Positions 10,599 to 60,860 of a stretch of 64,000 bases of DNA are shown piece by piece. The stretch lies in sequence record MT478991.1. The stretch is one strand, 5' to 3'. Each line of letters begins with the position of its first letter. Position 1 is the stretch's first letter. The notes under the pieces were generated by a model, which was not told the origin of the DNA, did no database searches, and saw nothing but the letters and a program-made list of their open reading frames with translations. This DNA is from Escherichia phage vB_EcoM_011D4. Both the position numbers and the translations under genes were made by a program.

Positions 10599-10605
10599 CT
10601 GGTTT

Positions 10606-10848
10606 TTAGAAATTTTTCGCTTCTTCTTCGGTCATCATAACCGCGCATTCGTGCATAACTTTGAAAACCGGATCAATCATGTCGAATGCTTCGCGAGACA
10701 GTTTACGAGAAGCGATTTTGATTGCTTCAACGTCTTCTACTACAGGAACAAAAACAGTTTTCAGTTCATCGAGCACGGCAGCTTCTTTTTCATTCAGGAA
10801 GATTCCAGCGTCGTACAGTGCAACTTCGATAACATTAACTTTAACCAT
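10606..10848 (-). CDS. Hypothetical protein (80 aa)
   Basis: Track start (10911) lies upstream of the predicted transcription start; ATG at 10848 has a GGAGGAAATAAAA RBS. Confidence 0.45.
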   Translation of the reverse strand: MVKVNVIEVALYDAGIFLNEKEAAVLDELKTVFVPVVEDVEAIKIASRKLSREAFDMIDPVFKVMHECAVMMTEEEAKNF

Positions 10849-10882
10849 TTTTATTTCCTCCAGTTCGTTTCGGTATGGGAGT

Positions 10883-10911
10883 ATAATACTACCGATGACC
10901 TTTGGCGTCAA
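10883..10911 (-). promoter_or_regulatory. Sigma70-like early promoter (TTGACG-N17-TATTAT)
   Basis: - strand TTGACGccaaaggtcatcggtagTATTATactccc; overlaps the 3' end of the upstream ORF. Confidence 0.5.
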
Positions 10912-11122
10912 CTGCTTTTTTATTATTTTCGTGAAAATTTTTCGTTGCCTCTAGGTTCTTTTCGACCTTCATCCATTCCGCGTATTCTTGCGCGGCTACT
11001 TTCGGATTTAGTCCGTCTTCGTACATTGCATCGAGTAATTCTTCGTCGGTGGGCTTATACCCTAGATAAGCCTCCACCTGATTTTTCCAAATTTTATACC
11101 AGTTCATATTATCACCAATCAA
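10889..11122 (-). CDS. Hypothetical protein (about 72-77 aa)
   Basis: - strand ORF; start uncertain (ORF-track start or ATG at 11107, MNWYKIW...). Confidence 0.4.
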   Translation of the reverse strand: MIGDNMNWYKIWKNQVEAYLGYKPTDEELLDAMYEDGLNPKVAAQEYAEWMKVEKNLEATKNFHENNKKAVDAKGHR

Positions 11123-15689: not shown

Positions 15690-17798
15690 TTAAAATTTAA
15701 CATTCTTAACCAGTTTCATAAAGTCTTGTGCGCGTTTGTCGTTATGCAGAATACGATACCAGTTATCTACAATATCATACAGTAACGGGCTATTCTCTTT
15801 AAACTTCGCACAAACTGCTTTAATTCGTTCGTTTGCTGCCGTGAATTTTTCATCACAGATCTTTTTAGTTTCTTCGTCCATAATCCAACGAGTACGAAGG
15901 AGTAACTTGGAAACCTCTTTATTATAATGACGACCGTACAGTCTGTCAATAAATTCTGGAACACAGCGTTCTAGTTCATCGTCATGAAACAACATAGTGA
16001 TCACACCCAGATATTCGCCATACCCCAGATGATTGGTCTTAACCTTCTTAGCCAGACCAGCCAGCTTACCGCGAACAAATTCTAGCGCACATTCCAATTG
16101 TTCGTCAACGAGATATTTTTGTGTCTCGTTTCGAGTAATAATATACTTTGTTACCCCGAAGTAGTCAAGCGCCGTGTGTAATGTATCTTCATTATAGATC
16201 GATTGACGGCTACGGCTTTCGAATGCATCACCCACACGGAACATATGCAAACCTGATAACTCGCGAATCTCTGCCGCTTTCATGTGATGGCTGGTTTTAT
16301 GCCAACTGTCACCAATCTTTTCCATGATATACACGTTAGGCAGCTTGGGAGTAGCTTCACGTTGTGTACGCTCGGTCTTCTCCGGCTTAACTGCTTTAGC
16401 ACGCAGATCATCGGCCTCTGATACCTTAATCACGGTCATTTCAGAATCATCATAATACTGTTTGATGTACTCGAAAGTCTCCATATGTTTTTCGTTGTTC
16501 TGACGGAACACCAGTACCTTTTTATTGATTCCGTATTCCTGGACCATGCCGTTAAGAGTCAGTGCACGCAGTTTCGGTTTATCGGTATCATCAATAAGAC
16601 ACGTAATATCTTCTTTATGCATCCATACAAAATGCGTAATGTTGTATTGACTGCTAACGAAAGCAGGGCGCAATTTACTGATTGTGTGACGAGTACGATA
16701 CAGAGTATACACCTGACCTTCTACGTCATTTGGCGAATCTTTACCCGCATTCACAAACTTATTATAGATTGCTACCGGATCATCCCACTGCCCGATCTTA
16801 CCCATCTTGCTAATAATATTGCGTTGAGTCGATGAATACTCGCTCATAAATTGCGCAAGTTTACGCTCTGTTTTAATGTTGGCGATCTTCTCTTTAACCT
16901 TTTCCAACATCATTTCATTGATTTCTGCAATGCGTTTTTCGATGTTCGCTTTAGTATCAATTGACAAGTGAACTTCTTCACGCGATGGCATCAGGTCCAG
17001 ATCACCCAACTCAAAATTAATGTAAATGGTCTGGTGCTGGCGGTTTACAGCTTCTAACCACGTTCCGCGAACATATTCATACGGGATCGGATACTGGATC
17101 TTACCCATGATTGCATATACTACATAGGAATCGTTATCACGACCATTGCAAACATAATAATTATCAAAGCTAGGGAAATAATTAATTTCGATTGCATTGA
17201 TATTAGGTTTGTGTTCCCCAAAATGACGAAGTACAAATTGTGCTTCTCGATGCCATGTCTGAATGTCTTTTTCTTTCACCGGAATAGTGATTTTCAGACC
17301 ATTGTCTTCATAGGTCGGTTCGTCGAAAATCTGCACCATTTTCGGCATAGAGTTTTGCACAAATGCCGTAAAGCCATAAGCGCGACCATTGTAATAGTTT
17401 ACGATTGTAAAGGTGTCAGTGTAGCTATAAGCAGATTTCGCACCTAAACCAAAAGATCCGATATAATCATTAGTCTGGTCTTTTGTTGATTCAAAGTAAA
17501 CCGTAAACAGTTGTTCTAATTCTTTCTTAGACGGAATACCAGTACCATAATCACGCACAGAAAAATACGGTTCGATTGCAGTCGGTAAATGAATATCAAA
17601 CGGACGATCTAAGGTTCCGGCTTCTTTGTGAGTGTCGGTAGCATTGCACGAATACTCACGGACGCAAGCACGTTCACAATATTGATAGGTATTCTTAGAA
17701 AGCACCATAAAAGCCTTGCTACTTGCTTTCAGTGAAAAATCAACCGCACCGCTCAAGTCACTGCCAAATACTTCTTCATTATCAATATGCATTTTCAT
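15690..17798 (-). CDS. rIIA: rIIA protein (GHKL-type ATPase-like N-terminus)
   Basis: 702 aa; N-terminal blocks VREYSCNATD, RDYGTGI, DYIGSFGLGAKSAYSYTDTFTI match the rIIA ATPase-like domain as recalled; adjacent to rIIB. Confidence 0.9.
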   Translation of the reverse strand: MKMHIDNEEVFGSDLSGAVDFSLKASSKAFMVLSKNTYQYCERACVREYSCNATDTHKEAGTLDRPFDIHLPTAIEPYFSVRDYGTGIPSKKELEQLFTVYFESTKDQTNDYIGSFGLGAKSAYSYTDTFTIVNYYNGRAYGFTAFVQNSMPKMVQIFDEPTYEDNGLKITIPVKEKDIQTWHREAQFVLRHFGEHKPNINAIEINYFPSFDNYYVCNGRDNDSYVVYAIMGKIQYPIPYEYVRGTWLEAVNRQHQTIYINFELGDLDLMPSREEVHLSIDTKANIEKRIAEINEMMLEKVKEKIANIKTERKLAQFMSEYSSTQRNIISKMGKIGQWDDPVAIYNKFVNAGKDSPNDVEGQVYTLYRTRHTISKLRPAFVSSQYNITHFVWMHKEDITCLIDDTDKPKLRALTLNGMVQEYGINKKVLVFRQNNEKHMETFEYIKQYYDDSEMTVIKVSEADDLRAKAVKPEKTERTQREATPKLPNVYIMEKIGDSWHKTSHHMKAAEIRELSGLHMFRVGDAFESRSRQSIYNEDTLHTALDYFGVTKYIITRNETQKYLVDEQLECALEFVRGKLAGLAKKVKTNHLGYGEYLGVITMLFHDDELERCVPEFIDRLYGRHYNKEVSKLLLRTRWIMDEETKKICDEKFTAANERIKAVCAKFKENSPLLYDIVDNWYRILHNDKRAQDFMKLVKNVKF

Positions 17799-17812: not shown

Positions 17813-18070
17813 TTAATTAAAATCTTCTTTGTCCATCTCTGCGTAGATTACATCCCACGCCCATAAATCAATAAACGCATTATATGTCACGGTGCAATCG
17901 TTGTCAATCACTTCTTTCGCATATTTCTTGATGTTTTCGTAGGAAACTTGCGGATCAATTTTGTGTTTACGAAGATGCGCATATTCATACCTCAAACACT
18001 CCATAAACAGGTCCATCGATTTCTTTTCTCGATGACACTTGGCGATCAGAAAATCAAAACTTCGACTCAT
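17813..18070 (-). CDS. Hypothetical protein (85 aa)
   Basis: ORF immediately upstream of rIIA. Confidence 0.4.
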   Translation of the reverse strand: MSRSFDFLIAKCHREKKSMDLFMECLRYEYAHLRKHKIDPQVSYENIKKYAKEVIDNDCTVTYNAFIDLWAWDVIYAEMDKEDFN

Positions 18071-18863: not shown

Positions 18864-18891
18864 ATTATAGAGAATCTCCCTTTTATGTCAA
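18864..18891 (-). promoter_or_regulatory. Sigma70-like early promoter (TTGACA-N16-TATAAT) with flanking 9-bp inverted repeat
   Basis: - strand TTGACAtaaaagggagattctcTATAATggg directly after the gp39 stop; AAAGGGAGA...TCTCCCTTT inverted repeat. Confidence 0.55.
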
Positions 18892-21919: not shown

Positions 21920-22084
21920 TTAGTGGAATGTTCTGGCATTTTTATTGATACATTCAGCTTGGTAGTCACGAGATTTTTTTGACGAATTAAGAGCTACAGC
22001 CAAAAAATCCTGTAACTGCTCGTTTGTCATTTTTGGCTTACGACGCGTATCTAAACTCTTCGTTCTTCTAACTTCATTAGCCAT
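21920..22084 (-). CDS. Small ORF (54 aa) flanked by 60-bp direct repeats
   Basis: MANEVRR...AECINKNARTFH; start 1 nt after the upstream stop; below ORF-track threshold. Confidence 0.3.
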   Translation of the reverse strand: MANEVRRTKSLDTRRKPKMTNEQLQDFLAVALNSSKKSRDYQAECINKNARTFH

Positions 22085-25358: not shown

Positions 25359-25883
25359 TTAGTAGCCGCGTTCTTGACGGGCGAAATTTTCAGCATTTTT
25401 CAGGTAGTACAGAATAAAGAGTTCTTGAGCGTCAATACCAAGCGGGATCATCTTTGACAGAATGAAGTGGACCGCGTCCACAAATTCAAATTTCACTTCA
25501 AGCTGATCTTCTGGTGACAGTTCAGAGAATTTACGCGCTCGCGCTTCCCCGTGGTTCTTTTTCCACATTTTCCAGATTGCACTTGCATCTTTACCATTGG
25601 ACATTCCACCCAGCGATGTGTAAAGCTCTCGTGTTTCGTCTGCGATAGCGTCATCCATCCGTTGCATCCAATCCAGCATTTCACCGCAAGTCTCTAGCTT
25701 AGTTGGATTTGGGACCCAATCAAATTTTTCGGATAGTGCAACCTGCAAACCAGTTTGCATTTCTAGCATCACCTGAAACGGATCTTTACCTTCTGCAATC
25801 GCGTGATGATATGCGGCAATAGCCGCGTTAATATCTTTTTCGTTAACCAGACCAGCACAAGAATTAAATTCTGACATATTCAC
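25359..25883 (-). CDS. 56: dCTPase/dNTP pyrophosphatase (gp56-like, MazG-type)
   Basis: 174 aa immediately next to primase gene 61, as for T4 gene 56; blocks SPEDQLEVKFEFVDAVHFIL and LYYLKNAENFARQERGY. Confidence 0.6.
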   Translation of the reverse strand: MNMSEFNSCAGLVNEKDINAAIAAYHHAIAEGKDPFQVMLEMQTGLQVALSEKFDWVPNPTKLETCGEMLDWMQRMDDAIADETRELYTSLGGMSNGKDASAIWKMWKKNHGEARARKFSELSPEDQLEVKFEFVDAVHFILSKMIPLGIDAQELFILYYLKNAENFARQERGY

Positions 25884-25891
25884 CTCATTAA

Positions 25892-26920
25892 TTAAAATTT
25901 ACAATATTTCATAAACCGCATTTTAGCCATCAGACCTTGTACGGTGTTCTCTTTGATATATTCCATGATCTGATCGCGGGTAGCACCCTCATCCTGAATC
26001 ATGGCGTTAACGTCTTTAGAATGCCACGGGCAACGATCCCATAATACAATCTTTTCCCCTGCATTGATAAACTTTTCCAGTCGGTGCATTGTATCGGCTG
26101 ACCGTGGTTCGGCGTCAAGTACAAACACTCGCTGATCAGGGAAAGGAATTTCATCTAATCCCAAAGTACCGCCAGTAATTGCACACCCGTTATCAATAAA
26201 CAGGGAATCTATCGGACCCTCTAAGAAGTACACTGGCTTGCTCGGATCAGCACGTTCAAGACCATAGACCTTACTCGCTAACTCATGAGTTTTAATCGTC
26301 ATATATTTGGTCTTTCCGTAATCCTTTCTCAATGCTCGCCCCTGAATGGATTCTATCTTGTTTTCGCGGTTAAAGATAGGAATCACTAAACGCGGTTCAG
26401 GTTGTGGATTCTTGAAGGTATCAGCTTTAATGTGATTTGCTACCTTTTGCCATTCTCTCGTGAAATACAGAAGATCCCATTTATCGTGGGGAATGCAACG
26501 ATCACTGACATACTTTATTATAGGATGATTAGCCGGAAGAGTATCTAATCTCTCGCAGAAAGGCAATGTTTGCACTTTCTTAATCTCCGGCTTTTCTACC
26601 TTTTTCAGTGGCTTGAACGTGGTGTTCTTGTGATCGCCTTGTTCCTTCCGTCGTTCCATAAGCCATTCCCTGAATAGGTCCGGCTTATATTGTTTAAGAA
26701 ATTCACCTAACGGCTGATTGTAGTTACAGTTGAAACAACCACAACGCAAACTATCCTTATAGGTATAGATACGGAATCGCGCTTGAGTATGATTTTTCTT
26801 TGAGTCACCGCAGATCGGACAACTACAGACCAGCGTAAATGAGCTAGTATGCAACCGTTTAAAATTTCGTTCGCCATATATGGCTTTTTCCGCTATTTCA
26901 TAATCTGCGTAGTAAATCAT
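25892..26920 (-). CDS. 61: DNA primase (gp61)
   Basis: 342 aa, same as T4 gp61; N-terminal zinc ribbon (CSCPICG...CGCFNCN); TOPRIM-like YFLEGPIDSLFIDNG; adjacent to gp41. Confidence 0.85.
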   Translation of the reverse strand: MIYYADYEIAEKAIYGERNFKRLHTSSFTLVCSCPICGDSKKNHTQARFRIYTYKDSLRCGCFNCNYNQPLGEFLKQYKPDLFREWLMERRKEQGDHKNTTFKPLKKVEKPEIKKVQTLPFCERLDTLPANHPIIKYVSDRCIPHDKWDLLYFTREWQKVANHIKADTFKNPQPEPRLVIPIFNRENKIESIQGRALRKDYGKTKYMTIKTHELASKVYGLERADPSKPVYFLEGPIDSLFIDNGCAITGGTLGLDEIPFPDQRVFVLDAEPRSADTMHRLEKFINAGEKIVLWDRCPWHSKDVNAMIQDEGATRDQIMEYIKENTVQGLMAKMRFMKYCKF

Positions 26921-26929
26921 ATTAACCTC

Positions 26930-27133
26930 TTATAGCTCAAATTTCATGAAAGTTCCTACACTTTCATTTTCATTCTCTCCGTTTTCATCTAAGCCAAATT
27001 TGTAGACACTACCATCTGGCGATGTGTAAGAGAATACACGAAAACGGCCTACCGGGTCAAGTTCTGTAAATTCATATTCTTTTCCGGCTTCAAAAAGTGC
27101 ATATGTGCTTTTAAGACATTTCATCGTAATCAT
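26930..27133 (-). CDS. Hypothetical protein (67 aa)
   Basis: ORF between the primase and helicase genes. Confidence 0.4.
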   Translation of the reverse strand: MITMKCLKSTYALFEAGKEYEFTELDPVGRFRVFSYTSPDGSVYKFGLDENGENENESVGTFMKFEL

Positions 27134-29960: not shown

Positions 29961-30274
29961 ACATAGCCCCCAACTACACGCATAACAAAGGTCTTGAGTT
30001 TATACCAGAAAGTTTCTTTTTTCAACTTTTCTTCTGCTTCTTTGATCTGCGCGGTTAACGCCTTAATGACGTGTGGATATACCACATCACGATCTGACGG
30101 CGTGGAGTAGTCGACCACAATACCTTTAGTGTCTGGATCGTATTCAACATTATGAATATAGACAATATGATGTTCTCCCTCTTCATCAACAATTATCAGT
30201 TCCTGAATAACTGTCTTCATTGCTTCTTGAATCAAGCCGTGTGCTTCTTCTAAACTTGTTGGTTTCTTATCCAT
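29957..30274 (-). CDS. gp40-like protein (positional)
   Basis: 105 aa between uvsX and gp41 as for T4 gene 40; hydrophobic C-terminus; stop overlaps the gp41 start. Confidence 0.45.
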   Translation of the reverse strand: MDKKPTSLEEAHGLIQEAMKTVIQELIIVDEEGEHHIVYIHNVEYDPDTKGIVVDYSTPSDRDVVYPHVIKALTAQIKEAEEKLKKETFWYKLKTFVMRVVGGYV

Positions 30275-30290
30275 AATATAATCCTCTCTA

Positions 30291-30319
30291 GATATGAAAA
30301 AGGGGCATGTAGCCCCTTT
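30291..30319 (-). terminator. Hairpin terminator downstream of uvsX
   Basis: - strand AAGGGG-CTACAT-GCCCCTT followed by TTTCAT. Confidence 0.5.
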
Positions 30320-30329
30320 ACTACCATTG

Positions 30330-31400
30330 TTATGCTAACATATCTTCGATTTCTTTGTCAACTGCTTCGTCGCTGATCACTTGTCCCAGCTTATAATGAT
30401 CGTTGATTGCTTCGTTAAACTTATCGTTTGTCAGAAGTGGTTTCCAGAACTCAATACTATTGGTTTCTTTAGCACGGAACTTGCGTTCTTCGGTTTCCAT
30501 CTCTCCGGTCTCAATATTCAGGATTGAACGAGAATACCAGCCGTTTGACGGTTTCACTACCCAGCCTAACTCTACAGCCAACTCCAGCAAACCGGAATAA
30601 GGATCGATGCCACCGCTAAATGTTACGCTAATCGGGAACTTAGATTTTTCTTTAACGGTTCGTGATTTTTCCGCATTCAGGATAAAATCATAACCAGTAA
30701 TTTCGGTTCCTTCTTTCTGCTGACGACGACCAATAATGAAAACTTCATTGGCTGAATACATCGCGCCCGTACCGCCGGACATAACGGTCTTACTAAACAT
30801 TTCTTGCGTTTCGTAAGTGTGGTTAATAGCGATGCACGGGATATCATTCATAGTCAGATACGGCGTAACCATACGGAACAAGCCTTTAAGTGCTTTAGCT
30901 CGCGTCATATCCTGTGCGGATTTCTCATTAATCGCGTCTTCAACTTCTTTTTTACTTGCTAAGTTACCGATTGAGTCAATAAAGATGATCACTTTATCTT
31001 CACGGGTAATTTGCTCAAGCTGGTTCATGATTTCAAATTTAAGTTCTTCGATGTTCTTGATTGGAACATGCACCACGCGATCAGGATCTACACCCATAGA
31101 TTCAAGATAAGCGGGTGTAATACCGAACTCAGAATCAAAGAACAAACACGCCGCATCAGGATTCTGTTTCATGTATGCGCTAACGCAAGTTAATCCCATG
31201 TTTGATTTAAAGTGCTTAGATGGACCAGCAAAGAAAATCAGACCAGATTGAAAGCCCTTTTTAAGATCACCTGAAAACGCAATATTCAGCATCGGGATCT
31301 TAGTGCGAGTATTTGTTTTTTCGTTAAAGAAGCTGGATTTAGACAGTACCGCAGTAGTTTTCAGGGTAGAGTTCTTTTTCAGTTTTTCCAGTACAGACAT
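30330..31400 (-). CDS. uvsX: UvsX recombinase (RecA-like)
   Basis: 356 aa; P-loop FFAGPSKHFKS; blocks LFFDSEFG, DSIGNLASKKE, MYSANEVFIIGRRQ typical of UvsX/RecA; next to gp40/41. Confidence 0.9.
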   Translation of the reverse strand: MSVLEKLKKNSTLKTTAVLSKSSFFNEKTNTRTKIPMLNIAFSGDLKKGFQSGLIFFAGPSKHFKSNMGLTCVSAYMKQNPDAACLFFDSEFGITPAYLESMGVDPDRVVHVPIKNIEELKFEIMNQLEQITREDKVIIFIDSIGNLASKKEVEDAINEKSAQDMTRAKALKGLFRMVTPYLTMNDIPCIAINHTYETQEMFSKTVMSGGTGAMYSANEVFIIGRRQQKEGTEITGYDFILNAEKSRTVKEKSKFPISVTFSGGIDPYSGLLELAVELGWVVKPSNGWYSRSILNIETGEMETEERKFRAKETNSIEFWKPLLTNDKFNEAINDHYKLGQVISDEAVDKEIEDMLA

Positions 31401-31411
31401 TATTAATACCT

Positions 31412-31600
31412 CTATTCAGTTAATCCGTAATACTTTAATTGCTTCATTGTTATTCGATCTTTGTAGTGCTCTTGAATTAACTTTTTCATCGCACCAACAT
31501 CGATCGTCACAAATACTTCGTTGCTGTGATTTCCGTGAACTTTCTTGAAATGCTCTATGCCTTCCTCACGTTCACGTTTAATCTTTTCAATGTCTCTCAT
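31412..31600 (-). CDS. Hypothetical protein (about 62 aa) in the uvsX-43 interval
   Basis: Only ORF between uvsX and gp43; track start is GTG; first ATG at 31600 has a weak RBS. Confidence 0.35.
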   Translation of the reverse strand: MRDIEKIKREREEGIEHFKKVHGNHSNEVFVTIDVGAMKKLIQEHYKDRITMKQLKYYGLTE

Positions 31601-31644
31601 CGTATATTTCTCACGTTGGCGGGTATCGTCACCCAACACCCGCC

Positions 31645-31672
31645 ATTATACACACTTTATCTTAAATGTCAA
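31645..31672 (-). promoter_or_regulatory. Sigma70-like early promoter (TTGACA-N16-TATAAT) overlapping the gp43 3' end
   Basis: - strand TTGACAtttaagataaagtgtgTATAAT; a GGCGGGT...ACCCGCC inverted repeat follows in the leader. Confidence 0.55.
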
Positions 31673-34340
31673 ACAGGTCCGTAAGCGATGCCACTTTTTC
31701 ATATTGCAGCTTTGCAGCCGTGGTAATATTCTCCAGTGGTTTAACGAAAGTCTTATTAAACAACAAAGGCCAGTCTAACCACTTTAACACCTCGCTTTCA
31801 ATTTCTGGTGGAATACGAGTACCAGACAACCAACCAAAACAGATTTCTCCAAACGGATTTCGATCTTTGAGCGGTACGATCATAACTTTCTCGCCCTCAC
31901 GAATCGGATCTAGTCCAAATTTTCGAGCATTACGATTATAACACAATACGCTCTTAACCGCATACGGACAACCCTTAATCGGATACCCGTTTGAATCGCT
32001 GTATTTCTGTAGGTTGTTTGCAGATGACACCGCAGCAACCTCAAGATAGTCAAGTTTTCTAAATTCTTGCTCAAAAATACCGTAGTATTCCTGCAATGAC
32101 TCTTCACCTTCCTGCAACATACGACGAATACATTCTTTCAGTGATTTCTGACATGCTTTAGGCGTAGAGCTACGTTGCGTTTCCAAGCCCATGATTTTTA
32201 GCTTAGGTTCAGCAAAGCGCGTTCCTTCCATATCCCAAACATTAAGAGCATAACGCTTTTTACCAGTCCAGAATCCACCGATACCCGCAGATTTCAACGG
32301 AGGACCAGCAATTGCTTCACGGTCCATAAACATCAAGTGCTCATAGTTGTTCATGTACTCGCACAACTCTCGATATCCTTTGTCGATAATCGGTTCCATT
32401 CGATGTTTACCGAAATTATCAAGGAAGTCAACAAGTTTTTCGGTATCGTCGAAACGATCTTCCCCGCCAACCTTATCAACAACATTGTTAACCAGCACAT
32501 AAACGGAGTCAGTATCACAATAACGAACATATGCAAAATCAGTTGTTCCGCAAAGCTCGTTTAAGTATTCGTTAATCTTACGCTCAATCCACTGAATTGC
32601 AAGCTGACCAAACAGTGTGATCGCACTAGCGTTACGGAGATCATAAAAGCGGAATTTAGGATTCCCCAACGCACCATAAAGGGAGTTGATCAAAACTTTA
32701 CGAGAAAGCTGGTTTGTATTGCACAAGATCGACTCGTCTTTACATTCTTCCAGCAATTTTTCTAGGGTATCTTTGCTTAATTCCAAAAGCATAGATTTAA
32801 ACGCTTCATCGAAGTCATGACGCACTTCAACGCTATAGCTAATGGTTCCCCCATAAACATGATTTTCATCGTGTAGAATCGCTTTACATAGTTCAGCATT
32901 GCGATCACATGCCAACATCATGTTTTTGTACTGCTTACGCTGATCGAATACCTTTTTAATCTCAATCGGTACGATACCATGAATATCTTTTCTATACATC
33001 CATCCGTTAGGCGAGCAAGAATACTCATCACTCGGACGTGGTGCAGTTTTATTGATATACTCGTGCATCGGTGCAGCATCAAAAGATCCAGCGATAGTTT
33101 CGGGTGAAATATTTACCTGCCTAATTATTGAAGGATACAAACTCGTGAGATCGAAGCTCATCATCCAACGGTAAGCATTCGGCACAGGTTCTTTTACAAA
33201 TGCGCCTGGATACGTCTGCTTAGGCTGTATCTTATTTTCCGGTACTACTTTACCCTCTGCTTTCAGAGATCCGAAGATAATAGCATCCCATACTTTCATC
33301 GGATTATAAACATGGTTAAATTTAATCTTTGCATAGAAACATAGGCTATACACCAGATCAATAAAACCACGCTTTTTATCAATCGCCAGCACACGGTCAA
33401 CGTCGCCGATGTTATAATCGATGTAAAGTTGATGGTTGTCATCACGCAATTTCTTTAATGGACCATCATAATCAACCTTACCGATTCCTGTCTCATATTC
33501 AGCAACATAATCTAATGCATATGTTGGTTGAGTCGTAAAGCTAAATTTCTTGTACAGGTCAATATAATCAAGGCTTTCGATCCCCATGATCGTAAATGCT
33601 TCACGCTCGTTGCCAAAATCATCCTGTGAGATTCGGGATTTAATCTTACCGCACGGGCTTAATCGGTTTGCCGTTCGACTTCCAAACTTATTACTGATAC
33701 GCTTAATGATATATGGAATATCGAATGTTTCTGTGTTCCAGCCAGTGAAGCCAACTGGTCGGTTTTCCTCAAAGAATCGGATGTATTCTAATAGCAATTC
33801 ATCTTCTGTATCATAGACGTTATAAACAACGCGCTCTACAATATCAGGTCGAAGAATAGATTTGCTTGCTTCCCAGATTTCACCGTTCTTTCCTTTCAAA
33901 TCAAATACAAAGAAACGATCATGTACGGAATCATAATGCGTAATTGCATCGATAGGATATTTCGCTTCTTCTGGTTTAGGAAATTCTGGGGCAGTGACCT
34001 CAATATCAACCCACGCTACACGGATTTTATTTCGGTCATATCGAATCTCGCCTTTATATGTATCGGACAGATAGGAGATGATAAAATCATCCATCCCTAG
34101 TGCCTCTTGCCCCATTTCCCCCATCTTTTTACGCCATTTGTTGGCCTCGTTCATAGATGGGAATTTTTTAGCAATGCAAGGCTTGCCATAGATATCTTTA
34201 TAATTCGTAACCATACCAGGCGCGGCATGATGAAATAAAGTTGGCGTATATTCAACGTAACGCTCTTGTTCTTGTCCAGCATCATCAATATAACGCTCGT
34301 AGATCTTATCACCTACTCGCTCACATGACAGAAAATACAT
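31662..34340 (-). CDS. 43: DNA polymerase (gp43, family B)
   Basis: About 892 aa; long blocks match T4 gp43 as recalled (FPSMNEANKWRKKM, YPIDAITHYDSV, MSFDLTSLYPSIIRQVNISPETI, DEYSCSPNGWMY, INSLYGALGN, YCDTDSVYV, GKKRYALNV). Start at ATG 34340 with AAGGAG RBS. Confidence 0.95.
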   Translation of the reverse strand: MYFLSCERVGDKIYERYIDDAGQEQERYVEYTPTLFHHAAPGMVTNYKDIYGKPCIAKKFPSMNEANKWRKKMGEMGQEALGMDDFIISYLSDTYKGEIRYDRNKIRVAWVDIEVTAPEFPKPEEAKYPIDAITHYDSVHDRFFVFDLKGKNGEIWEASKSILRPDIVERVVYNVYDTEDELLLEYIRFFEENRPVGFTGWNTETFDIPYIIKRISNKFGSRTANRLSPCGKIKSRISQDDFGNEREAFTIMGIESLDYIDLYKKFSFTTQPTYALDYVAEYETGIGKVDYDGPLKKLRDDNHQLYIDYNIGDVDRVLAIDKKRGFIDLVYSLCFYAKIKFNHVYNPMKVWDAIIFGSLKAEGKVVPENKIQPKQTYPGAFVKEPVPNAYRWMMSFDLTSLYPSIIRQVNISPETIAGSFDAAPMHEYINKTAPRPSDEYSCSPNGWMYRKDIHGIVPIEIKKVFDQRKQYKNMMLACDRNAELCKAILHDENHVYGGTISYSVEVRHDFDEAFKSMLLELSKDTLEKLLEECKDESILCNTNQLSRKVLINSLYGALGNPKFRFYDLRNASAITLFGQLAIQWIERKINEYLNELCGTTDFAYVRYCDTDSVYVLVNNVVDKVGGEDRFDDTEKLVDFLDNFGKHRMEPIIDKGYRELCEYMNNYEHLMFMDREAIAGPPLKSAGIGGFWTGKKRYALNVWDMEGTRFAEPKLKIMGLETQRSSTPKACQKSLKECIRRMLQEGEESLQEYYGIFEQEFRKLDYLEVAAVSSANNLQKYSDSNGYPIKGCPYAVKSVLCYNRNARKFGLDPIREGEKVMIVPLKDRNPFGEICFGWLSGTRIPPEIESEVLKWLDWPLLFNKTFVKPLENITTAAKLQYEKVASLTDLFDI

Positions 34341-34372
34341 AATATAAACTCCTTCACTTACGAAAGACACTC

Positions 34373-34401
34373 ATTATAGGGGAATCGACTTAGTTTGTCA
34401 A
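34373..34401 (-). promoter_or_regulatory. Sigma70-like early promoter for gp43 (TTGACA-N17-TATAAT)
   Basis: - strand TTGACAaactaagtcgattccccTATAAT about 30 nt upstream of the gp43 start; flanked by an imperfect inverted repeat. Confidence 0.6.
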
Positions 34402-34422
34402 TACCCCTATCCCATCAGTATC

Positions 34423-34785
34423 TTAGCGTCCGATCTGATATTTCTCGATCAGCGTCCACTCTTCTTTCTGTTTAAAAGACAGTACACGGAAATTATTAAC
34501 TTCGGTAGTTTCAAAATCACTATCAATCAGGGTACACAGATTCCACTGCGCCAGAAGTTTTGCAATGTTATTGCGGCGTAATTCATCTTCCCACGTCATT
34601 TTAACACTACGACCATCTAATTTCAACAACTCCTTGAAATGAACGATGTAATAGCGCCCTTTCTTCTGGAGAATATGACAAGACTGATACAGTGTCTTGT
34701 CTCGATTGTTGGCAATGCCGCAGCGGGTTAAAGTTTCCTTAATTTTAAGGAAGTTTTCAGGACTAATCAAATTAATTTCAATCAT
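34423..34785 (-). CDS. regA: Translational repressor RegA
   Basis: 120 aa; blocks KETLTRCGIANNRDKTLYQSCHILQKKGRYYIVHFKEL and NNFRVLSFKQKEEW match T4 RegA as recalled; adjacent to 62/44/45. Confidence 0.85.
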   Translation of the reverse strand: MIEINLISPENFLKIKETLTRCGIANNRDKTLYQSCHILQKKGRYYIVHFKELLKLDGRSVKMTWEDELRRNNIAKLLAQWNLCTLIDSDFETTEVNNFRVLSFKQKEEWTLIEKYQIGR

Positions 34786-34786
34786 T

Positions 34787-35365
34787 TTACCACCTTTCTA
34801 TAATCTTTTTAAGTCGTTTCCTTTCTGTCTGATTCTTAGTAACACCCGCCAAAAGTTCATCGGTCGCATACGGTTTAATGTGCTTCAATAACTTGTCCAT
34901 ATATCCCTTTTCATTAGCCAAATCGAGATAAAACCGGGCGTCATCCATATTTACACAATATGCTTTCGCCACTGCCGTTAAAACCAATTTTTGGTCCAAT
35001 TCTTCTGTTAGTTTAGCCCATTTACCGTATCGTTTCCCCTTAGAAATACTCTGTAAGAGATAATCAAAATGCATTTGATCTGGGAGGCCATGACCGATTA
35101 AATTCATCACATACGCGCTATATAGGCAATCTGCGTGCTGGGAAAGAGCGGTGTTAATCCATCTCTGGTTATATGCAGAATTGTTTCCCACATTAACGCG
35201 CTGTTTATCTAAGGTGATATGATCCATCAGAGCAAATAATGCATTGTCGGTTTTCTCGGTGAATGTATCCGCTAATTCAGACACCTTTTCCCAATCACGA
35301 GAGCGCCATGCAATTTCATGCTCGTTTAATTGTGTATCATCTTCACCGAAAAATTGACCTAACAT
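34787..35365 (-). CDS. 62: Clamp loader small subunit (gp62)
   Basis: 192 aa between regA and gp44, as for T4 gene 62. Confidence 0.7.
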   Translation of the reverse strand: MLGQFFGEDDTQLNEHEIAWRSRDWEKVSELADTFTEKTDNALFALMDHITLDKQRVNVGNNSAYNQRWINTALSQHADCLYSAYVMNLIGHGLPDQMHFDYLLQSISKGKRYGKWAKLTEELDQKLVLTAVAKAYCVNMDDARFYLDLANEKGYMDKLLKHIKPYATDELLAGVTKNQTERKRLKKIIERW

Positions 35366-36403: not shown

Positions 36404-37093
36404 TTAGTCGGTGTAGCTGGAGTCAAGGTCACACGCGATCATGTAAGACACGGTTTCACTTGCCAGCCATACAGCCTTACGGCGAGTGAAGCTCAATTTG
36501 TAATCGCCGAAGTCGGTAGCAACCAGTTTCATGTTGTCTTTACGAATAAAGAAATGGAAGTCGGCGGTTCCTGCATATTCGCCCATATCAAGACAAAACA
36601 TCTCATTAGGATTGTTTTTGTCAATCTCTTCCCAGCCTTTGATCATCAGACGGCCATCAATCGGTAGAAATTCAAGGCGGTCCACTTTAAGCTGATTGCT
36701 CATTTTCATAAGCTGTTTCAGATCGTCGTTGCTCAGTTCGTAATCCACATCGCTTGCAGGTGGAGTAACTCGGCCTTTCGGTGATACGATAGCAGCAGCA
36801 CTAGCACCAGGATAATTAATTTTCAGACGATCATTAGACACACGAATGTTTCCGGTGCGGTTATCAACCGTAATATCTGCTTCATCGCCTACCAGATTCA
36901 GAATACCCAAGAAAGAGTTAAGATCATAGATCCCAATTTCGTGTTCCAGTTCTTGATTCAGAGTCGCTTCACCATATACAACGTTTGTCATGTTTTTGGT
37001 GATCAGGACGTTTCCTTTTTTCAGGATGATACCTGGGTTAATAGCGGAAAAGTTTTTCAGGGTAGCAATGGTTTCTTTAGTCAGTTTCATCAA
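36404..37093 (-). CDS. 45: Sliding clamp (gp45)
   Basis: 229 aa (T4 228); N-terminus KETIATLKNFSAINPGIILK...IYDLNSFLGILNLV matches gp45 as recalled. Confidence 0.85.
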   Translation of the reverse strand: MMKLTKETIATLKNFSAINPGIILKKGNVLITKNMTNVVYGEATLNQELEHEIGIYDLNSFLGILNLVGDEADITVDNRTGNIRVSNDRLKINYPGASAAAIVSPKGRVTPPASDVDYELSNDDLKQLMKMSNQLKVDRLEFLPIDGRLMIKGWEEIDKNNPNEMFCLDMGEYAGTADFHFFIRKDNMKLVATDFGDYKLSFTRRKAVWLASETVSYMIACDLDSSYTD

Positions 37094-41216: not shown

Positions 41217-42242
41217 CTAACTTTTTGCGCTATTTACTTCGGCTAAAAGTTCATCAGAGATACGCTTAACTGCCGCAAGTTCTTCCGGTTCTAGGTTTTG
41301 TTCTTCCAGATATTCATAGACCATCTGAATAGTGCTTTTAACTTCAATAACACCTGTTTCCTGTGATGCGCTACTCTCCAGCTTATGGACAACTTTTAGC
41401 TTATGCACAACGGCTTCTAACGCGCTTTCTAACTTAGTTAACCCATTATCAGCGACCGTTGCAATTAGGCGCACACTAAGCCCTTTAAAGCGTTCTACAT
41501 CGATTTTATCATCTGACGGGTAAGCGATACGCACATGATAAGTTTTGTCATTCTGGATAAACTCCTTTTTGTGTGTATCTGTATCGAATACCCAAAAACC
41601 ACGCGGATCATTTTCGTCGCCAGCCGTTAGTGTGTATGGTGTACCGATATACGTTACGTTACCGCCATCACTGATAGTATGAAAGTGACCGGAAAACACT
41701 TCACGGTATTTCTTGAGGAAGTCCGCGCTATAACCTTCGGATTTTAACCCTTTATAGAAATAGTAGCCGGACAATTCCCAATGGCCTACACAATATTCGC
41801 TGAATGAATTTTGAATAAACTCTAAAACCTCGGATTTATTGTCATCACAAAACCACGGGAACAGGTCGAATGATACCCCATCAAAGGTAACTGTTTCCGG
41901 CTTATCAATAACCTTAATGCAATCATACTGGCTTAACACTTCGCGCGGTGCGTTAGGCTGGATCTTATTGCGTTTAAACATATCATGATTCCCGACCGTG
42001 ATATAACAGGTGATTCCTGCCTCTTCCAGTAATGGGATGACCTTAGTACGGTTAAATTTCATGGTTTCATGTGTGATAGCCTTGCGACAATCAAACCAAT
42101 CCCCTGTTTGAATCCATATCTTAATACCGTTTTCTTTAGAATAATCAACAGCTTTCTTGATCGTGTCTAAAATATACTCATGCACCCACGGATCATCGCC
42201 ACCGATACCAGTATGCAGATCACCCAAAAGCAAAATTTTCAT
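41217..42242 (-). CDS. 47: Recombination endonuclease subunit gp47 (Mre11/SbcD-like)
   Basis: 341 aa; phosphoesterase motifs (LLLGDLH, GDWFD, VGNHD, GHWE, GHFH); blocks GTPYTLTAGDENDPRGFWVFDTDT match gp47 as recalled. Confidence 0.9.
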   Translation of the reverse strand: MKILLLGDLHTGIGGDDPWVHEYILDTIKKAVDYSKENGIKIWIQTGDWFDCRKAITHETMKFNRTKVIPLLEEAGITCYITVGNHDMFKRNKIQPNAPREVLSQYDCIKVIDKPETVTFDGVSFDLFPWFCDDNKSEVLEFIQNSFSEYCVGHWELSGYYFYKGLKSEGYSADFLKKYREVFSGHFHTISDGGNVTYIGTPYTLTAGDENDPRGFWVFDTDTHKKEFIQNDKTYHVRIAYPSDDKIDVERFKGLSVRLIATVADNGLTKLESALEAVVHKLKVVHKLESSASQETGVIEVKSTIQMVYEYLEEQNLEPEELAAVKRISDELLAEVNSAKS

Positions 42243-42291
42243 AGTCTCTTCCTCTCTTCGTTTTCGATGCTCTCACTATATCATAGAAAAA

Positions 42292-42324
42292 TAAAAAGGG
42301 AAACCCCTTTCGGAGTCTCCCTTA
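42292..42324 (-). terminator. Rho-independent terminator upstream of gp47
   Basis: - strand 12-bp stem AAGGGAGACTCC-GAAA-GGGGTTTCCCTT (GAAA tetraloop, two G-U pairs) followed by TTTTAT. Confidence 0.6.
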
Positions 42325-42332
42325 TAAAGCCA

Positions 42333-42620
42333 TTACAGCATACTTAATACCGTTTGCCGTGTACTAATCCACATAGCAGAAAGCAGTTCTGGCGTGTGTG
42401 GCTGTTTGTAGATATCACGTAACTTTCCGATAGCGTAGATATACGCATCACGGTTATCATCGATGATAGCTTGTTCAGCCCACCGCTTAAGGCGTGCAAT
42501 CTCTCGCGAGTTCTTACGCAAGATCTTTTCCGCTTTCTTAGCGGCTTTAGCCTCTAGTTCTGCTTGTACTTTGTCTACTTCATTCACTGCAATCTGGTCA
42601 TGCTGTTCATCGTAAGTCAT
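42333..42620 (-). CDS. Hypothetical protein (95 aa)
   Basis: ORF between gp55 and gp47. Confidence 0.4.
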   Translation of the reverse strand: MTYDEQHDQIAVNEVDKVQAELEAKAAKKAEKILRKNSREIARLKRWAEQAIIDDNRDAYIYAIGKLRDIYKQPHTPELLSAMWISTRQTVLSML

Positions 42621-42856
42621 GTTATTTTTCCTTCTGGGATATAATCAATTATTAAAGAAAATTCATCTTCTGATACATTATAGCTATGTGAGATTGTACC
42701 CGTAAAGACCTCAAGATCCGGTGATTTGATATTGCACGGATCGATAATCACCGGAACGCCGCAATCTCTCAAAAATAATTTGGCGAAATACGGCACGAGG
42801 TCAGTTTCAAACTCTGCTTCTTCCAGCAAACGGGAAATGTTAATTTTCAATCTCAT
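42617..42856 (-). CDS. Hypothetical protein (79 aa)
   Basis: ORF between gp55 and gp47; overlaps the gp55 3' end. Confidence 0.4.
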
Positions 42857-43413: not shown

Positions 43414-44883
43414 CTATTCCCCATTACCATTATACTTTCTTTGCTTAGTTATCCACACTCTAACCATCTCTACAGATTCGCCGTCAGACGGATCAAGAGT
43501 TTTTCCCTTTTTCTTCATGCGGTACTTAAATCCGTTAAATCTTGCATTCTCTTGTTCGTTAAAGTCGAACATCTTTTTAAATGATTTTCGCCCTTTACGC
43601 TCACCACATTCTAGCGGAATCATTCGGTCTGTTATTACATTGGCATTAGGTAGAAACGTTTTTAGATAATCTACCAACGCCCAATCAGGAACATATAGAT
43701 TAACATTCTCCTTGCTCTCGTTGTCTCTCAGGTTACAACGCAAACATAATTGAAATGCTGGTTCCAGATAATCAGACACATGACGCGCTTTCAAAAACTC
43801 ATTTGTTGGAAGATCGCAACTGTGCGCCAATCCTTTTAAAATGTCAATCTCCCATCGTTGAGGGTTAAAGCTGAACATCACAGCAACATTTTTATGATGA
43901 ATGTAAGAGTTAAGGCCATAAGATCCGTATGGTATCCGCTCACCAATACCATTTGTGCACGCTTCACGGTCCCTATTCACGGTATAAATGAAGTCATCAC
44001 CACATTCATTTTTAACCATATCAACTAGACGTTCAAAGGTATTGTTTGTTTCTGACTGGTGACGCGACCAGCGTTCGGAGTCCGTCATAAGGATGATATT
44101 AACTCTATCTGTATTTTTATACTCTTTGAAATATAGTCTGGATTCTAGAGCACTCGGAACAAAATCGCAATTTGCATAGTATCGTAGATACTTCCCGCTA
44201 TATGTATCAAAGAGATTTGCACATGCTATCGTAACCTTTTTAAAGTCTCCCCATGTACCGTGTTTGTTATCGTTCAAGAAAACAATTTTCGACCCATTCT
44301 TCCGGTGTCCTTCGTTATGTTTTACCATAACGTTGATTTTCTTCTCTAATAACGCCTCATAAAGCCCTCTAAGAGAAGAATCGATCATATCAGTACCATC
44401 CTTTGCACTTTCTATCTTTTCTTTGATAGCGGCCTTCTCAGAGTCTTTTAGAACTAGGTTCTGTAGACATTCCGATTCGTCGGCGATTGGTTCGCAATGC
44501 TTCGTGATAAGTTCAAGATTAGACTTAAACGGATACTCATTAAATTCAACCAGTTGAGGAACTTCATCAATGTAAAGAGCATAATCACCAAACATTTTTG
44601 AACGTTCCATATTAGATAACGCAGTATGTGTAATGAATATCACATCAGCACCGTCTTTAACTGATTGCATTATCGACGCTTGCACTGTCTTAAGGCTTCT
44701 TAGTCTTGTGCTATCGATCAAGACAGCACGACCGCCCATTCTTTTAAACTTATTGTAAGATTGTTCACTTAAAACACGAGATGGCGAAGCAATAACCGCT
44801 TTTTCTTTTGTCTCTAGGACGTGGGAAAGTATAGCATCAGTTTTCCCCGCCGCTGGCAATGCGATTAATGTTTCAATCTTCAT
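43414..44883 (-). CDS. P-loop NTPase of unknown function (489 aa)
   Basis: Walker A at residues 8-15 (ALPAAGKT) and Walker B-like ALYIDEVP near residue 105; large uncharacterised C-terminal region; ATG overlaps the upstream stop. Confidence 0.5.
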   Translation of the reverse strand: MKIETLIALPAAGKTDAILSHVLETKEKAVIASPSRVLSEQSYNKFKRMGGRAVLIDSTRLRSLKTVQASIMQSVKDGADVIFITHTALSNMERSKMFGDYALYIDEVPQLVEFNEYPFKSNLELITKHCEPIADESECLQNLVLKDSEKAAIKEKIESAKDGTDMIDSSLRGLYEALLEKKINVMVKHNEGHRKNGSKIVFLNDNKHGTWGDFKKVTIACANLFDTYSGKYLRYYANCDFVPSALESRLYFKEYKNTDRVNIILMTDSERWSRHQSETNNTFERLVDMVKNECGDDFIYTVNRDREACTNGIGERIPYGSYGLNSYIHHKNVAVMFSFNPQRWEIDILKGLAHSCDLPTNEFLKARHVSDYLEPAFQLCLRCNLRDNESKENVNLYVPDWALVDYLKTFLPNANVITDRMIPLECGERKGRKSFKKMFDFNEQENARFNGFKYRMKKKGKTLDPSDGESVEMVRVWITKQRKYNGNGE

Positions 44884-49764: not shown

Positions 49765-49792
49765 CATTATACATTAGCTAATCAGGTTGTCA
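49765..49792 (-). promoter_or_regulatory. Sigma70-like early promoter (TTGACA-N16-TATAAT)
   Basis: - strand TTGACAacctgattagctaatgTATAATgctcacatc. Confidence 0.6.
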
Positions 49793-49794
49793 AC

Positions 49795-52268: not shown

Positions 52269-52296
52269 ATTATAGCATACTCCCTTCGCATGTCAA
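52269..52296 (-). promoter_or_regulatory. Sigma70-like early promoter (TTGACA-N16-TATAAT) inside GGGAGTA..TACTCCC palindrome
   Basis: - strand TTGACAtgcgaagggagtatgcTATAATactccc. Confidence 0.6.
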
Positions 52297-55232: not shown

Positions 55233-56045
55233 TCAATCTACGTTAGTTACATAAACTTCTTGCGTATCAGAAGACTTGCCACCTGAACGGTCTAGGCAAT
55301 AGGTCTTATTCAACAGGACGCAGTTTAAATCATTCCGCTTGATAAAGTCAAGAAGATGATCGTTTACCTTTCCCTTATGATGCGTGACATTACTGATACC
55401 AAACTGAAAACCACGCGCCATAATAGATTCCACCCACCGATAGAATTTAATCTCTTCCTCGTCACTCCAGAACTTATTATATTCCGCAGAAGTGATAAGG
55501 TACGGCGGGTCCAAATAAACGAAATCACCTGGCAAGATCTCGATCTCGTCATAACGACCAGACGTAAAACTGATTCGACCGTCTTTGTTTTCTTCCTTAA
55601 AATTCAGGACACGCTCTACCGCGTTTTCGTTAAAAGTCCGGCGACCAAAATTAGCATTAAATTCGCCCTTTCGGTTATGGCGGTTAATGTTGCTAAAACT
55701 GTGCTGAATCAACACAAACAGCGATAGCGGATCTGGATTCTCGTTATACTTCTTACGGAATGCCATGTAAGCGTCTTTATCATCACGAGACAAACCATTT
55801 TCGGAAATAATCCGATTGATTGTAGAAACCGGATCAGGACACGCATCAATGGCCTTGTAAGCGTCAATTAAACGATGGTCATAGTCATTAGCCAGCACAT
55901 CACCTTCGACGTACAGAGACACGCTCAAACCGCCACAAAAGGCATCAACAAAGCGGTTATAGTGCTTAGGGAAATACTTACTAACACCTGGCAATAGCTT
56001 TTCCTTATTGCCAGTATAGGGAATTAAACCTAATGCTTTCTTCAT
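55233..56045 (-). CDS. dam: DNA adenine methyltransferase (Dam)
   Basis: 270 aa; AdoMet motif FVDAFCGGLSV and catalytic DPPY (YLDPPYL). Confidence 0.85.
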   Translation of the reverse strand: MKKALGLIPYTGNKEKLLPGVSKYFPKHYNRFVDAFCGGLSVSLYVEGDVLANDYDHRLIDAYKAIDACPDPVSTINRIISENGLSRDDKDAYMAFRKKYNENPDPLSLFVLIQHSFSNINRHNRKGEFNANFGRRTFNENAVERVLNFKEENKDGRISFTSGRYDEIEILPGDFVYLDPPYLITSAEYNKFWSDEEEIKFYRWVESIMARGFQFGISNVTHHKGKVNDHLLDFIKRNDLNCVLLNKTYCLDRSGGKSSDTQEVYVTNVD

Positions 56046-57637: not shown

Positions 57638-57666
57638 ATTATAGGATAACCGCATTTTCATGTCAA
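57638..57666 (-). promoter_or_regulatory. Sigma70-like early promoter (TTGACA-N17-TATAAT) with -10 inside an inverted repeat
   Basis: - strand TTGACAtgaaaatgcggttatccTATAATagccgc; GCGGTTA..TAGCCGC flanks the -10. Confidence 0.6.
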
Positions 57667-60064: not shown

Positions 60065-60114
60065 TTTGTATTCCTCACTCTTCTGTAATTACTTCATATT
60101 CAATTTTCCATACA

Positions 60115-60294
60115 TCAATCGCCCAGCTTAAAAAGCTCATACGATTTACAGAAAGATGACCAAATATACTGTTTTCCGTGCATCGTTGTTATGTGTGTAC
60201 GCTCGCCAACCTCAACGAAAGACATATTTGACTTTGTGATAACTATAGGAATGCGACCGAAAGCTGGCGGTATTACTGATTCGTTGGTCTTCAT
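60115..60294 (-). CDS. Hypothetical protein (59 aa); partial duplicate of 59630..60064
   Basis: PAFGRIPIVITKSNMSFVEVGERTHITTMHGKQYIWSSFC matches the neighbour's C-terminus; identical 16-nt RBS context ACAGAAGAGTGAGGAA. Confidence 0.35.
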   Translation of the reverse strand: MKTNESVIPPAFGRIPIVITKSNMSFVEVGERTHITTMHGKQYIWSSFCKSYELFKLGD

Positions 60295-60832: not shown

Positions 60833-60860
60833 ATTATAGCACTATGATTTTCATTGTCAA
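60833..60860 (-). promoter_or_regulatory. Sigma70-like early promoter (TTGACA-N16-TATAAT)
   Basis: - strand TTGACAatgaaaatcatagtgcTATAATgcacacat. Confidence 0.6.

Follow-up and report, generated by a model that had tools for sequence, protein, structure and literature searches.

The 261-bp gap between gene 43 and uvsX in Escherichia phage vB_EcoM_011D4 (MT478991.1), short and free of cytosine-modification genes, is the expected and documented arrangement for RB49-like phages. The stretch of DNA analysed here (64,000 nt, hereafter the window) makes 39% of a genome of ~164 kb visible and, as judged from nucleotide identity and gene order, is part of the genome of a Krischvirus (RB49-type, "pseudo-T-even") coliphage, a relative of T4. 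We consider it very probable that the short gap is explained by membership in the Krischvirus lineage, which carries canonical deoxycytidine in its DNA and lacks gene 42, the glucosyltransferases, alc, denB, and Arn. That RB49-type phages have neither gene 42 nor the glucosyltransferases, alc, or denB, and that their cytosine is canonical, was already established in the literature between 1997 and 2010. A purge of restriction sites, described below, is a new sequence-level sign that agrees with unmodified cytosine.

The assignment to the lineage was examined by megablast. With positions 30000–34500 as the query, 64 records matched, in 58 of which a single contiguous stretch covered at least 80% of the query, and the nucleotide identity over this region was 98.7% to ELT3, 98.3% to E26, and 97.3% to RB49. 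A 25-kb query gave 97–98% identity to Krischvirus records, and the whole window was collinear with RB49 and ELT3 at 94–98% identity, apart from a few short hyperplastic (variable) segments. Four segments (4478–4717, 10600–10955, 21961–22080, and 60087–60289) had no megablast match in ELT3 or RB49; the first sits in the distal tail-fibre gene (3314–6232), the second spans a 101-aa ORF (10606–10911), and all four probably represent host-range or hyperplastic-region variation. The GC content of the window was 40.4%, and no tRNA genes were found in it, as is likewise the case for RB49 (PMC2993671). Three homing-endonuclease genes of close relatives were missing from the window, namely ELT3_245, whose place is between genes 61 and 56 (25878–25882 in the window), RB49p040 (HNH-AP2), whose place is between gene 47 and a-gt.4 (42239–42243), and ELT3_198, whose place adjoins dam (55239–55328).

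The genes of the replication region run along the minus strand in the order 45, 44, 62, regA, 43, a small ORF, uvsX, 40, and 41, with gene 45 at 36404–37093 and regA at 34423–34785. Gene 43 (31662–34340, minus strand) encodes a family B DNA polymerase with matches to Pfam DNA_pol_B and DNA_pol_B_exo1. Its ORF is open upstream as far as a GTG at 34370; the ATG at 34340 is preceded by a GAAGGAG ribosome-binding site and fits the RB49 annotation of 892 aa. Its TAA stop codon occupies 31662–31664. The uvsX gene (30330–31400, minus strand) encodes a RecA-like recombinase (Pfam T4_UVSX_C, E 8.6e-35, and RecA) that is 64% identical to T4 UvsX. The interval between the two genes (31401–31661) extends exactly from the uvsX start codon to the gene 43 stop codon and contains one 62-aa ORF, a perfect sigma-70 promoter, and a stable hairpin. 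The first-pass annotation had stated that only one ORF of roughly 62 aa separates uvsX from gp43, and this was confirmed, with the ATG at 31600 and the stop codon at 31412–31414. The same junction, consisting of gene 43, a 62-aa hypothetical protein, and uvsX, is annotated in RB49, ELT3, and SAP, and a 340-bp segment covering it was nearly invariant among the four aligned genomes (window, RB49, ELT3, and SAP), promoter and hairpin included. In JSE, G5211, G2494, ELT4, kvi, and PTE-Eco09, gene 43 aligned to the window in two pieces, and the polymerase of these two-piece Krischvirus records is annotated as two CDSs, which indicates an insertion of ~0.5–1.1 kb in those records and none in the window. 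Gene 43 of JSE has been described as holding a putative group I intron whose homing endonuclease gene is degraded (PMC2993671).

The promoter (31645–31672, minus strand) matches the consensus of a sigma-70 (early) promoter, TTGACA-16 nt-TATAAT, at 12 of 12 positions. The −35 hexamer falls within the final codons of gene 43 (TTT GAC ATT TAA), the RB49 annotation marks a "hypothetical early promoter" at the same place, and the promoter sequence was invariant in RB49, ELT3, and SAP. The promoter is presumably active. In total, the window contains nine perfect TTGACA-N15–18-TATAAT sites, every one of them on the minus strand, where chance would give 0.09; the other eight lie at 15921–15949, 17879–17907, 18864–18891, 34373–34401, 49766–49793, 52269–52296, 57638–57666, and 60833–60860. 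Near-perfect sigma-70 early promoters are known for RB49 and phi1 (PMC4122927).

The hairpin (31617–31645, minus strand) begins at the final base of the −10 hexamer; its stem has 12 bp, G-U pairs among them, and its loop has 5 nt (UGGCGGGUGUUG / CGAUACCCGCCA), with an 8-nt perfect inverted repeat inside the structure. The centroid fold of the hairpin alone was −22.2 kcal/mol, the same value was obtained when 45 nt were folded, and a 76-nt stretch containing the hairpin reached −23.9 kcal/mol (z = −4.4 versus shuffles). The structure is unique within the window, and its stem and loop were invariant in the four aligned genomes, the single SAP difference being located one base past the 3' arm. 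No Rfam match was obtained in 31000–35000. A classical intrinsic terminator was ruled out, because no U-run follows the stem. Since the 5' arm lies upstream of the likely start site, the hairpin would form only in read-through transcripts of gene 43, and it may stabilise the 3' ends of those transcripts. The promoters at 60860 and 49793 have a terminator-like GC stem-loop with a T-run upstream, which is the composite "PeSL" layout of RB49 and phi1; at the gene 43–uvsX junction a perfect promoter is also adjoined by a hairpin (GGCGGG...CCCGCC), but this hairpin lies downstream of the −10 hexamer.

The 62-aa ORF (31412–31600, minus strand; stop codon TAG) is equivalent to RB49p025; in a program-made ORF list it is given as starting at a GTG at 31639 (75 aa). 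The stop codon and the GAGG ribosome-binding site of uvsX overlap, the uvsX ATG follows 11 nt on, and because the two reading frames are only 11 bp apart, they are probably co-transcribed. The product matched phrog_12120 ("unknown function", E 3.5e-41), and no match was found in Pfam or NCBIfam. The ORF is present in Krischvirus records and, among T4 relatives, in Krischvirus only, while relatives with 45–50% identity occur in unrelated 45–49 kb phages of Klebsiella, Salmonella, and E. coli. The family is small, with only eight 50%-identity clusters among 1.84 billion representatives, and its alignment shows conservation of R11, I15, F18, H22, G23, V29, and R49 and the motifs HGNHS(N/H)EV and HYK(D/G)R. 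A distant homologue in Salmonella phage Akira lies among small hypothetical genes adjoining terminase and gave no functional hint. AlphaFold predicted three helices from a 12-sequence alignment (pLDDT 78.7), whereas the prediction from the single sequence was poor (pLDDT 63). A Foldseek search with the model returned nothing in the PDB and only its own orthologue in BFVD, and no solved structure was related to it by sequence (best E 0.67). The product is highly charged and lacks any hydrophobic segment, and the helices predicted for it are soluble. An analogue of Imm was ruled out by the lack of a membrane segment. Our best guess is that the ORF, co-expressed with uvsX, encodes a small early protein whose binding partner is a host or phage component.

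The first-pass annotation had compared the interval with that of T4, in which beta-gt, gene 42, and imm lie between uvsX and gene 43; the T4 record bears this out for these three genes but also places segA and imm.1 there, which had been left out. The window and the complete genomes of RB49 and ELT3 were searched by tblastn with gp42, b-gt, a-gt, imm, imm.1, segA, alc, denB, arn, gp56, Dam, denA, cd, and UvsX of T4 as queries. None of b-gt, a-gt, imm, imm.1, segA, alc, denB, and arn was detected in any of the three targets, with nothing better than E 0.017. The dCMP hydroxymethylase gp42 had no match in the window, and in the whole RB49 and ELT3 genomes it gave a weak match to td only (E 0.008 and 2e-4). 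The best E-values for the glucosyltransferases were 0.56–8.8; the best b-gt match was located inside gene 55, and T4 a-gt found nothing better than E 8.8 in the window. The best match of T4 Imm (E 1.6) fell in the tail-fibre region, and a BLAST-level absence is weak evidence for short membrane proteins such as Imm (83 aa).

The second glucosyltransferase locus of T4, the interval between genes 47 and 55, corresponds to 42243–42856 (minus strand) in the window and holds only a-gt.4 (42333–42620, minus strand) and a-gt.5 (42617–42856, minus strand), both ORFs named according to the RB49 annotation. It contains no a-gt gene and none of the HNH endonuclease gene that RB49 has there. Both T4 glucosyltransferase loci (43–uvsX and 47–55) are occupied in the window by small unrelated ORFs only. 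Seven larger ORFs without assignment, located around the a-gt and nrd loci, were examined with Pfam for hidden modification enzymes, and the sole result among the seven was a weak DEAD-helicase match of a 489-aa ORF (43414–44883).

The weak similarity of gp42 to td was also considered. An Asn at the relevant site of td specifies dUMP and marks a thymidylate synthase as opposed to a dCMP hydroxymethylase. The Krischvirus td contains the sequence LPFNVASY with this dUMP-specifying Asn, together with the catalytic Cys-His, and it scored 283 bits on the NCBIfam thymidylate synthase equivalog TIGR03284 (cut-off 108), on which T4 gp42 scored 30.6 bits. The Asn and the TIGR03284 score indicate that td is a real thymidylate synthase and no hidden hydroxymethylase, and td is the only gene of the thymidylate-synthase superfamily in the complete RB49 and ELT3 genomes. 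In RB49, where it lies outside the part of the genome covered by the window, td encodes 410 aa and, relative to T4 td, has a ~135-aa insertion between YGMAWR and DQLQNVI.

A gp56-like dNTP pyrophosphatase and Dam had been noted in the window, and homology to T4 gp56 and T4 Dam confirmed both. The gp56 homologue (25359–25877, minus strand; phrog_173, RB49 gene 56) belongs to the dCTPase/dUTPase family of all-alpha NTP pyrophosphohydrolases and is 49% identical to T4 gp56 over its full length (E 2e-60); its Pfam dUTPase_2 score of 23.8 bits was barely over the 22.9-bit cut-off. Across the window, RB49, and ELT3, the identity of gp56 to the T4 protein was 49–51%. Dam, a predicted GATC N6-adenine DNA methyltransferase (55233–56045, minus strand), scored 149.5 bits on NCBIfam TIGR00571 (cut-off 114.85) and is 47% identical to T4 Dam in the window and 45–47% identical across the window, RB49, and ELT3. 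Homologues of denA (49%) and cd (56%) were found in the complete RB49 and ELT3 genomes only and none inside the window. The presence of gp56 is not diagnostic of a hydroxymethylcytosine system, as it occurs in almost all T4 relatives (PMC2993671). In addition to Dam, two DNA methyltransferases are annotated in RB49, both of them outside the region corresponding to the window: RB49p143, which matches Pfam models of the MTS, Eco57I, and N6_Mtase type, and RB49p189, which has no Pfam match at E 0.01 or better.

These absences agree with what has been reported for RB49 and its relatives. The RB49 type lacks gene 42, denB, and alc, gene 56 and denA occur in nearly all T4 relatives, and alc and denB accompany gene 42 in every lineage of the same compilation (PMC2993671, Petrov et al. 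2010, Table 4). RB49 has neither the hydroxymethylase nor the beta-glucosyltransferase (PMC4041780, Yaung et al. 2014, citing Monod et al. 1997), and its DNA, which is without hmC and ghmC, is cut by HpaII and NheI, unlike T4 DNA (PMC4041780). RB43 and RB49 keep denA and dCTPase/dUTPase homologues despite their canonical DNA (PMC8056088). Krischvirus phages are without the hmC transferase and endonuclease IV, and RB49 transduces plasmids (PMC12115623, 2025). The Krischvirus TB34 (OX001802.1) was found by HPLC-MS to contain canonical cytosine (PMC13390438).

Restriction sites were examined by comparing the count of each palindrome with its maximal-order Markov expectation in the window, in the whole RB49 genome, and in 74 kb of T4. 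A genome protected by glycosylated hydroxymethylcytosine can keep its restriction sites, but an unmodified one needs to lose them. The observed and expected numbers in the window, RB49, and T4, respectively, were 0/27.4, 0/65.1, and 8/7.5 for TCCGGA; 0/15.9, 0/37.5, and 44/44.4 for AAGCTT; 0/15.4, 2/46.3, and 39/36.1 for GAATTC; 0/15.2, 0/29.8, and 8/8.2 for AGCGCT; 0/14.0, 0/33.9, and 0/1.3 for GGATCC; 0/11.9, 0/35.2, and 8/8.4 for ACCGGT; and 0/9.8, 0/24.0, and 14/16.0 for AGTACT. Among the testable 6-bp palindromes, an observed/expected ratio of 0.15 or less was found for 10 of 41 in the window and 18 of 57 in RB49, as against none of 39 in T4. The purged palindromes of RB49 all contain G/C, and 16 of the 18 had zero copies; a purge of G/C-containing palindromes was noted in ELT3 as well. 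The shorter sites CCWGG (0.4–0.5), GGCC (0.4–0.5), and AGCT (0.6–0.7) were also depleted in Krischvirus, in contrast to ratios near 1.0 in T4, while GATC was avoided in T4 (0.34) and not avoided in the window (1.04). Such a pattern is consistent with a long exposure of the cytosines of this lineage to type II restriction enzymes. No report on restriction-site avoidance in RB49 was found in the literature collection that was searched.

Taken together, the RB49-type identity of the window, the tblastn absences, the published data, and the site purge supported the earlier suggestion that this phage may not use hydroxymethylcytosine. Absence of the modification genes beyond the window is inferred from relatives that are 94–98% identical, 64 kb of the ~164 kb having been examined directly.

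A very improbable reading is that cytosine is modified via a pathway non-homologous to the T-even one, as claimed for the Krischvirus SAP (OZ034687.1), in which case the absence of gene 42 would be uninformative on the chemistry of the DNA. SAP was reported to contain 5-hmdC and alpha-gentiobiosyl-methyl-dC and to be BrxU-sensitive, and no genes of such a pathway were found in it (PMC13390438, 2026). SAP has the same 43-ORF-uvsX junction as the window, and many Krischvirus ORFs are without an assigned function. However, TB34, which is 99.96% identical to SAP, has canonical cytosine, and the authors found no SNPs between the two that would explain the difference (PMC13390438). RB49 DNA, moreover, is cut by cytosine-sensitive enzymes (PMC4041780), and nothing would select for the genus-wide site purge if the genome were fully glycosylated. 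The profile of SAP (~1/3 hmC and ~2/3 gentiobiosyl) equals that of seven Tequatrovirus phages from the same collection (PMC13390438), and in our reading this agreement makes a mixed or mislabelled DNA preparation the simplest explanation. It is highly improbable that in the present phage, as reported for SAP, glycosylated bases derived from hmC take the place of cytosine and are made by enzymes that have no relation to gp42 or the known glucosyltransferases; such enzymes would lie among the many unassigned Krischvirus ORFs and would perhaps be switched on by a very small genetic difference.

The first-pass annotation had also considered that the modification genes lie elsewhere in the genome. 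A phage that uses hydroxymethylcytosine and has its gene 42 and glucosyltransferase homologues outside the window would be compatible with the visibility of just 39% of the genome and with the presence of a homologue of gp56, a protein that belongs to the hydroxymethylcytosine pathway of T4. This reading was not supported and must be regarded as very remote, since the complete RB49 and ELT3 genomes contain no homologue of gp42, a-gt, or b-gt and their sole thymidylate-synthase-superfamily gene is a true ThyA. Homologues of gp56 are found in nearly all T4 relatives, whether or not they have gene 42 (PMC2993671), and alc and denB, the companions of gene 42 (PMC2993671, Table 4), are missing too; the site purge also argues against long-term hypermodification of cytosine. 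Finally, a recent deletion in this isolate alone, or an assembly artefact, can be dismissed as a source of the compact interval with near certainty, because no evidence in its favour was found, 58 database records show the identical unbroken gene arrangement at 95–99% identity, the interval is nearly invariant base for base in RB49, ELT3, and SAP, and the few records that align in two pieces carry their insertion within gene 43 and not in the interval.

In the preferred reading, the lineage replicates its DNA with ordinary deoxycytidine, has neither a dCMP hydroxymethylase nor DNA glucosyltransferases, and is also without the functions directed against cytosine DNA (alc and denB) and the anti-Mcr protein Arn. 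The gp56 homologue would most likely serve as a dUTPase and as a supplier of dUMP for thymidylate synthase, and not to deplete dCTP. Protection from restriction would be provided partly by Dam methylation, predicted here from homology, and partly, we infer, by the genome-wide purge of G/C palindromes, and not by hypermodification of bases. The site 3' of gene 43, which in T4 is the home of imm.1, imm, 42, b-gt, and segA, is compact in the window, with a putative consensus sigma-70 early promoter overlapping the end of gene 43 and followed by the hairpin, the presumed early 62-aa ORF, and uvsX. It should be possible to cut, clone, and target the DNA of this phage with restriction enzymes and CRISPR, and the phage should escape type IV (modification-dependent) restriction and may carry out generalized transduction. 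Cas9 work has used RB49 as a control with unmodified DNA, and in phage-therapy screening Krischvirus phages have been flagged as plasmid transducers.

Among the phages compared, RB49 (NC_005066) is nearly the same as the present phage at this locus, with the order 43, RB49p025, and uvsX, the same annotated early promoter, and the same hairpin. The 62-aa ORF is 97% identical at the protein level, and the 97.3% nucleotide identity holds over 4.5 kb. The differences comprise a few substitutions, including Gly at codon 36 of the ORF where RB49, ELT3, and SAP have Asp, and the HNH endonuclease gene between 47 and a-gt.4 of RB49 (26366–26930 in RB49), which is missing from the window. T4 (NC_000866) shares the order and orientation of 45-44-62-regA-43 and of uvsX-40-41, as well as gp56 and Dam in the window and, with respect to the complete RB49 and ELT3 genomes, denA and cd. 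In contrast, the T4 interval (uvsX, segA, b-gt, 42, imm, imm.1, and 43) spans ~3.6 kb with five genes, whereas that of the window has a single small ORF, unrelated to these genes, in 261 bp. Also missing from the window are a-gt, alc, denB, and arn, all of which are present in T4, and T4 shows no purge of G/C palindromes and avoids GATC, the reverse of what was observed in the window.

Two further T4 relatives place this junction in a wider context. RB43 (Pseudotevenvirus, NC_007023) is likewise a coliphage without gene 42 (PMC2993671) and has a compact 43-uvsX junction, but its uvsX follows 79 bp after gene 43 with no ORF between them. The replication neighbourhood is conserved in Aeromonas phage 44RR2.8t (NC_005135) as 43-42-40-41, where gene 42 lies directly downstream of gene 43 and uvsX is located elsewhere. 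The position of gene 42 in 44RR2.8t shows that lineages which have this gene usually carry it at the site after gene 43, and judging from the genomes compared here, the same site is compact in the lineages with cytosine DNA, RB43 and Krischvirus.
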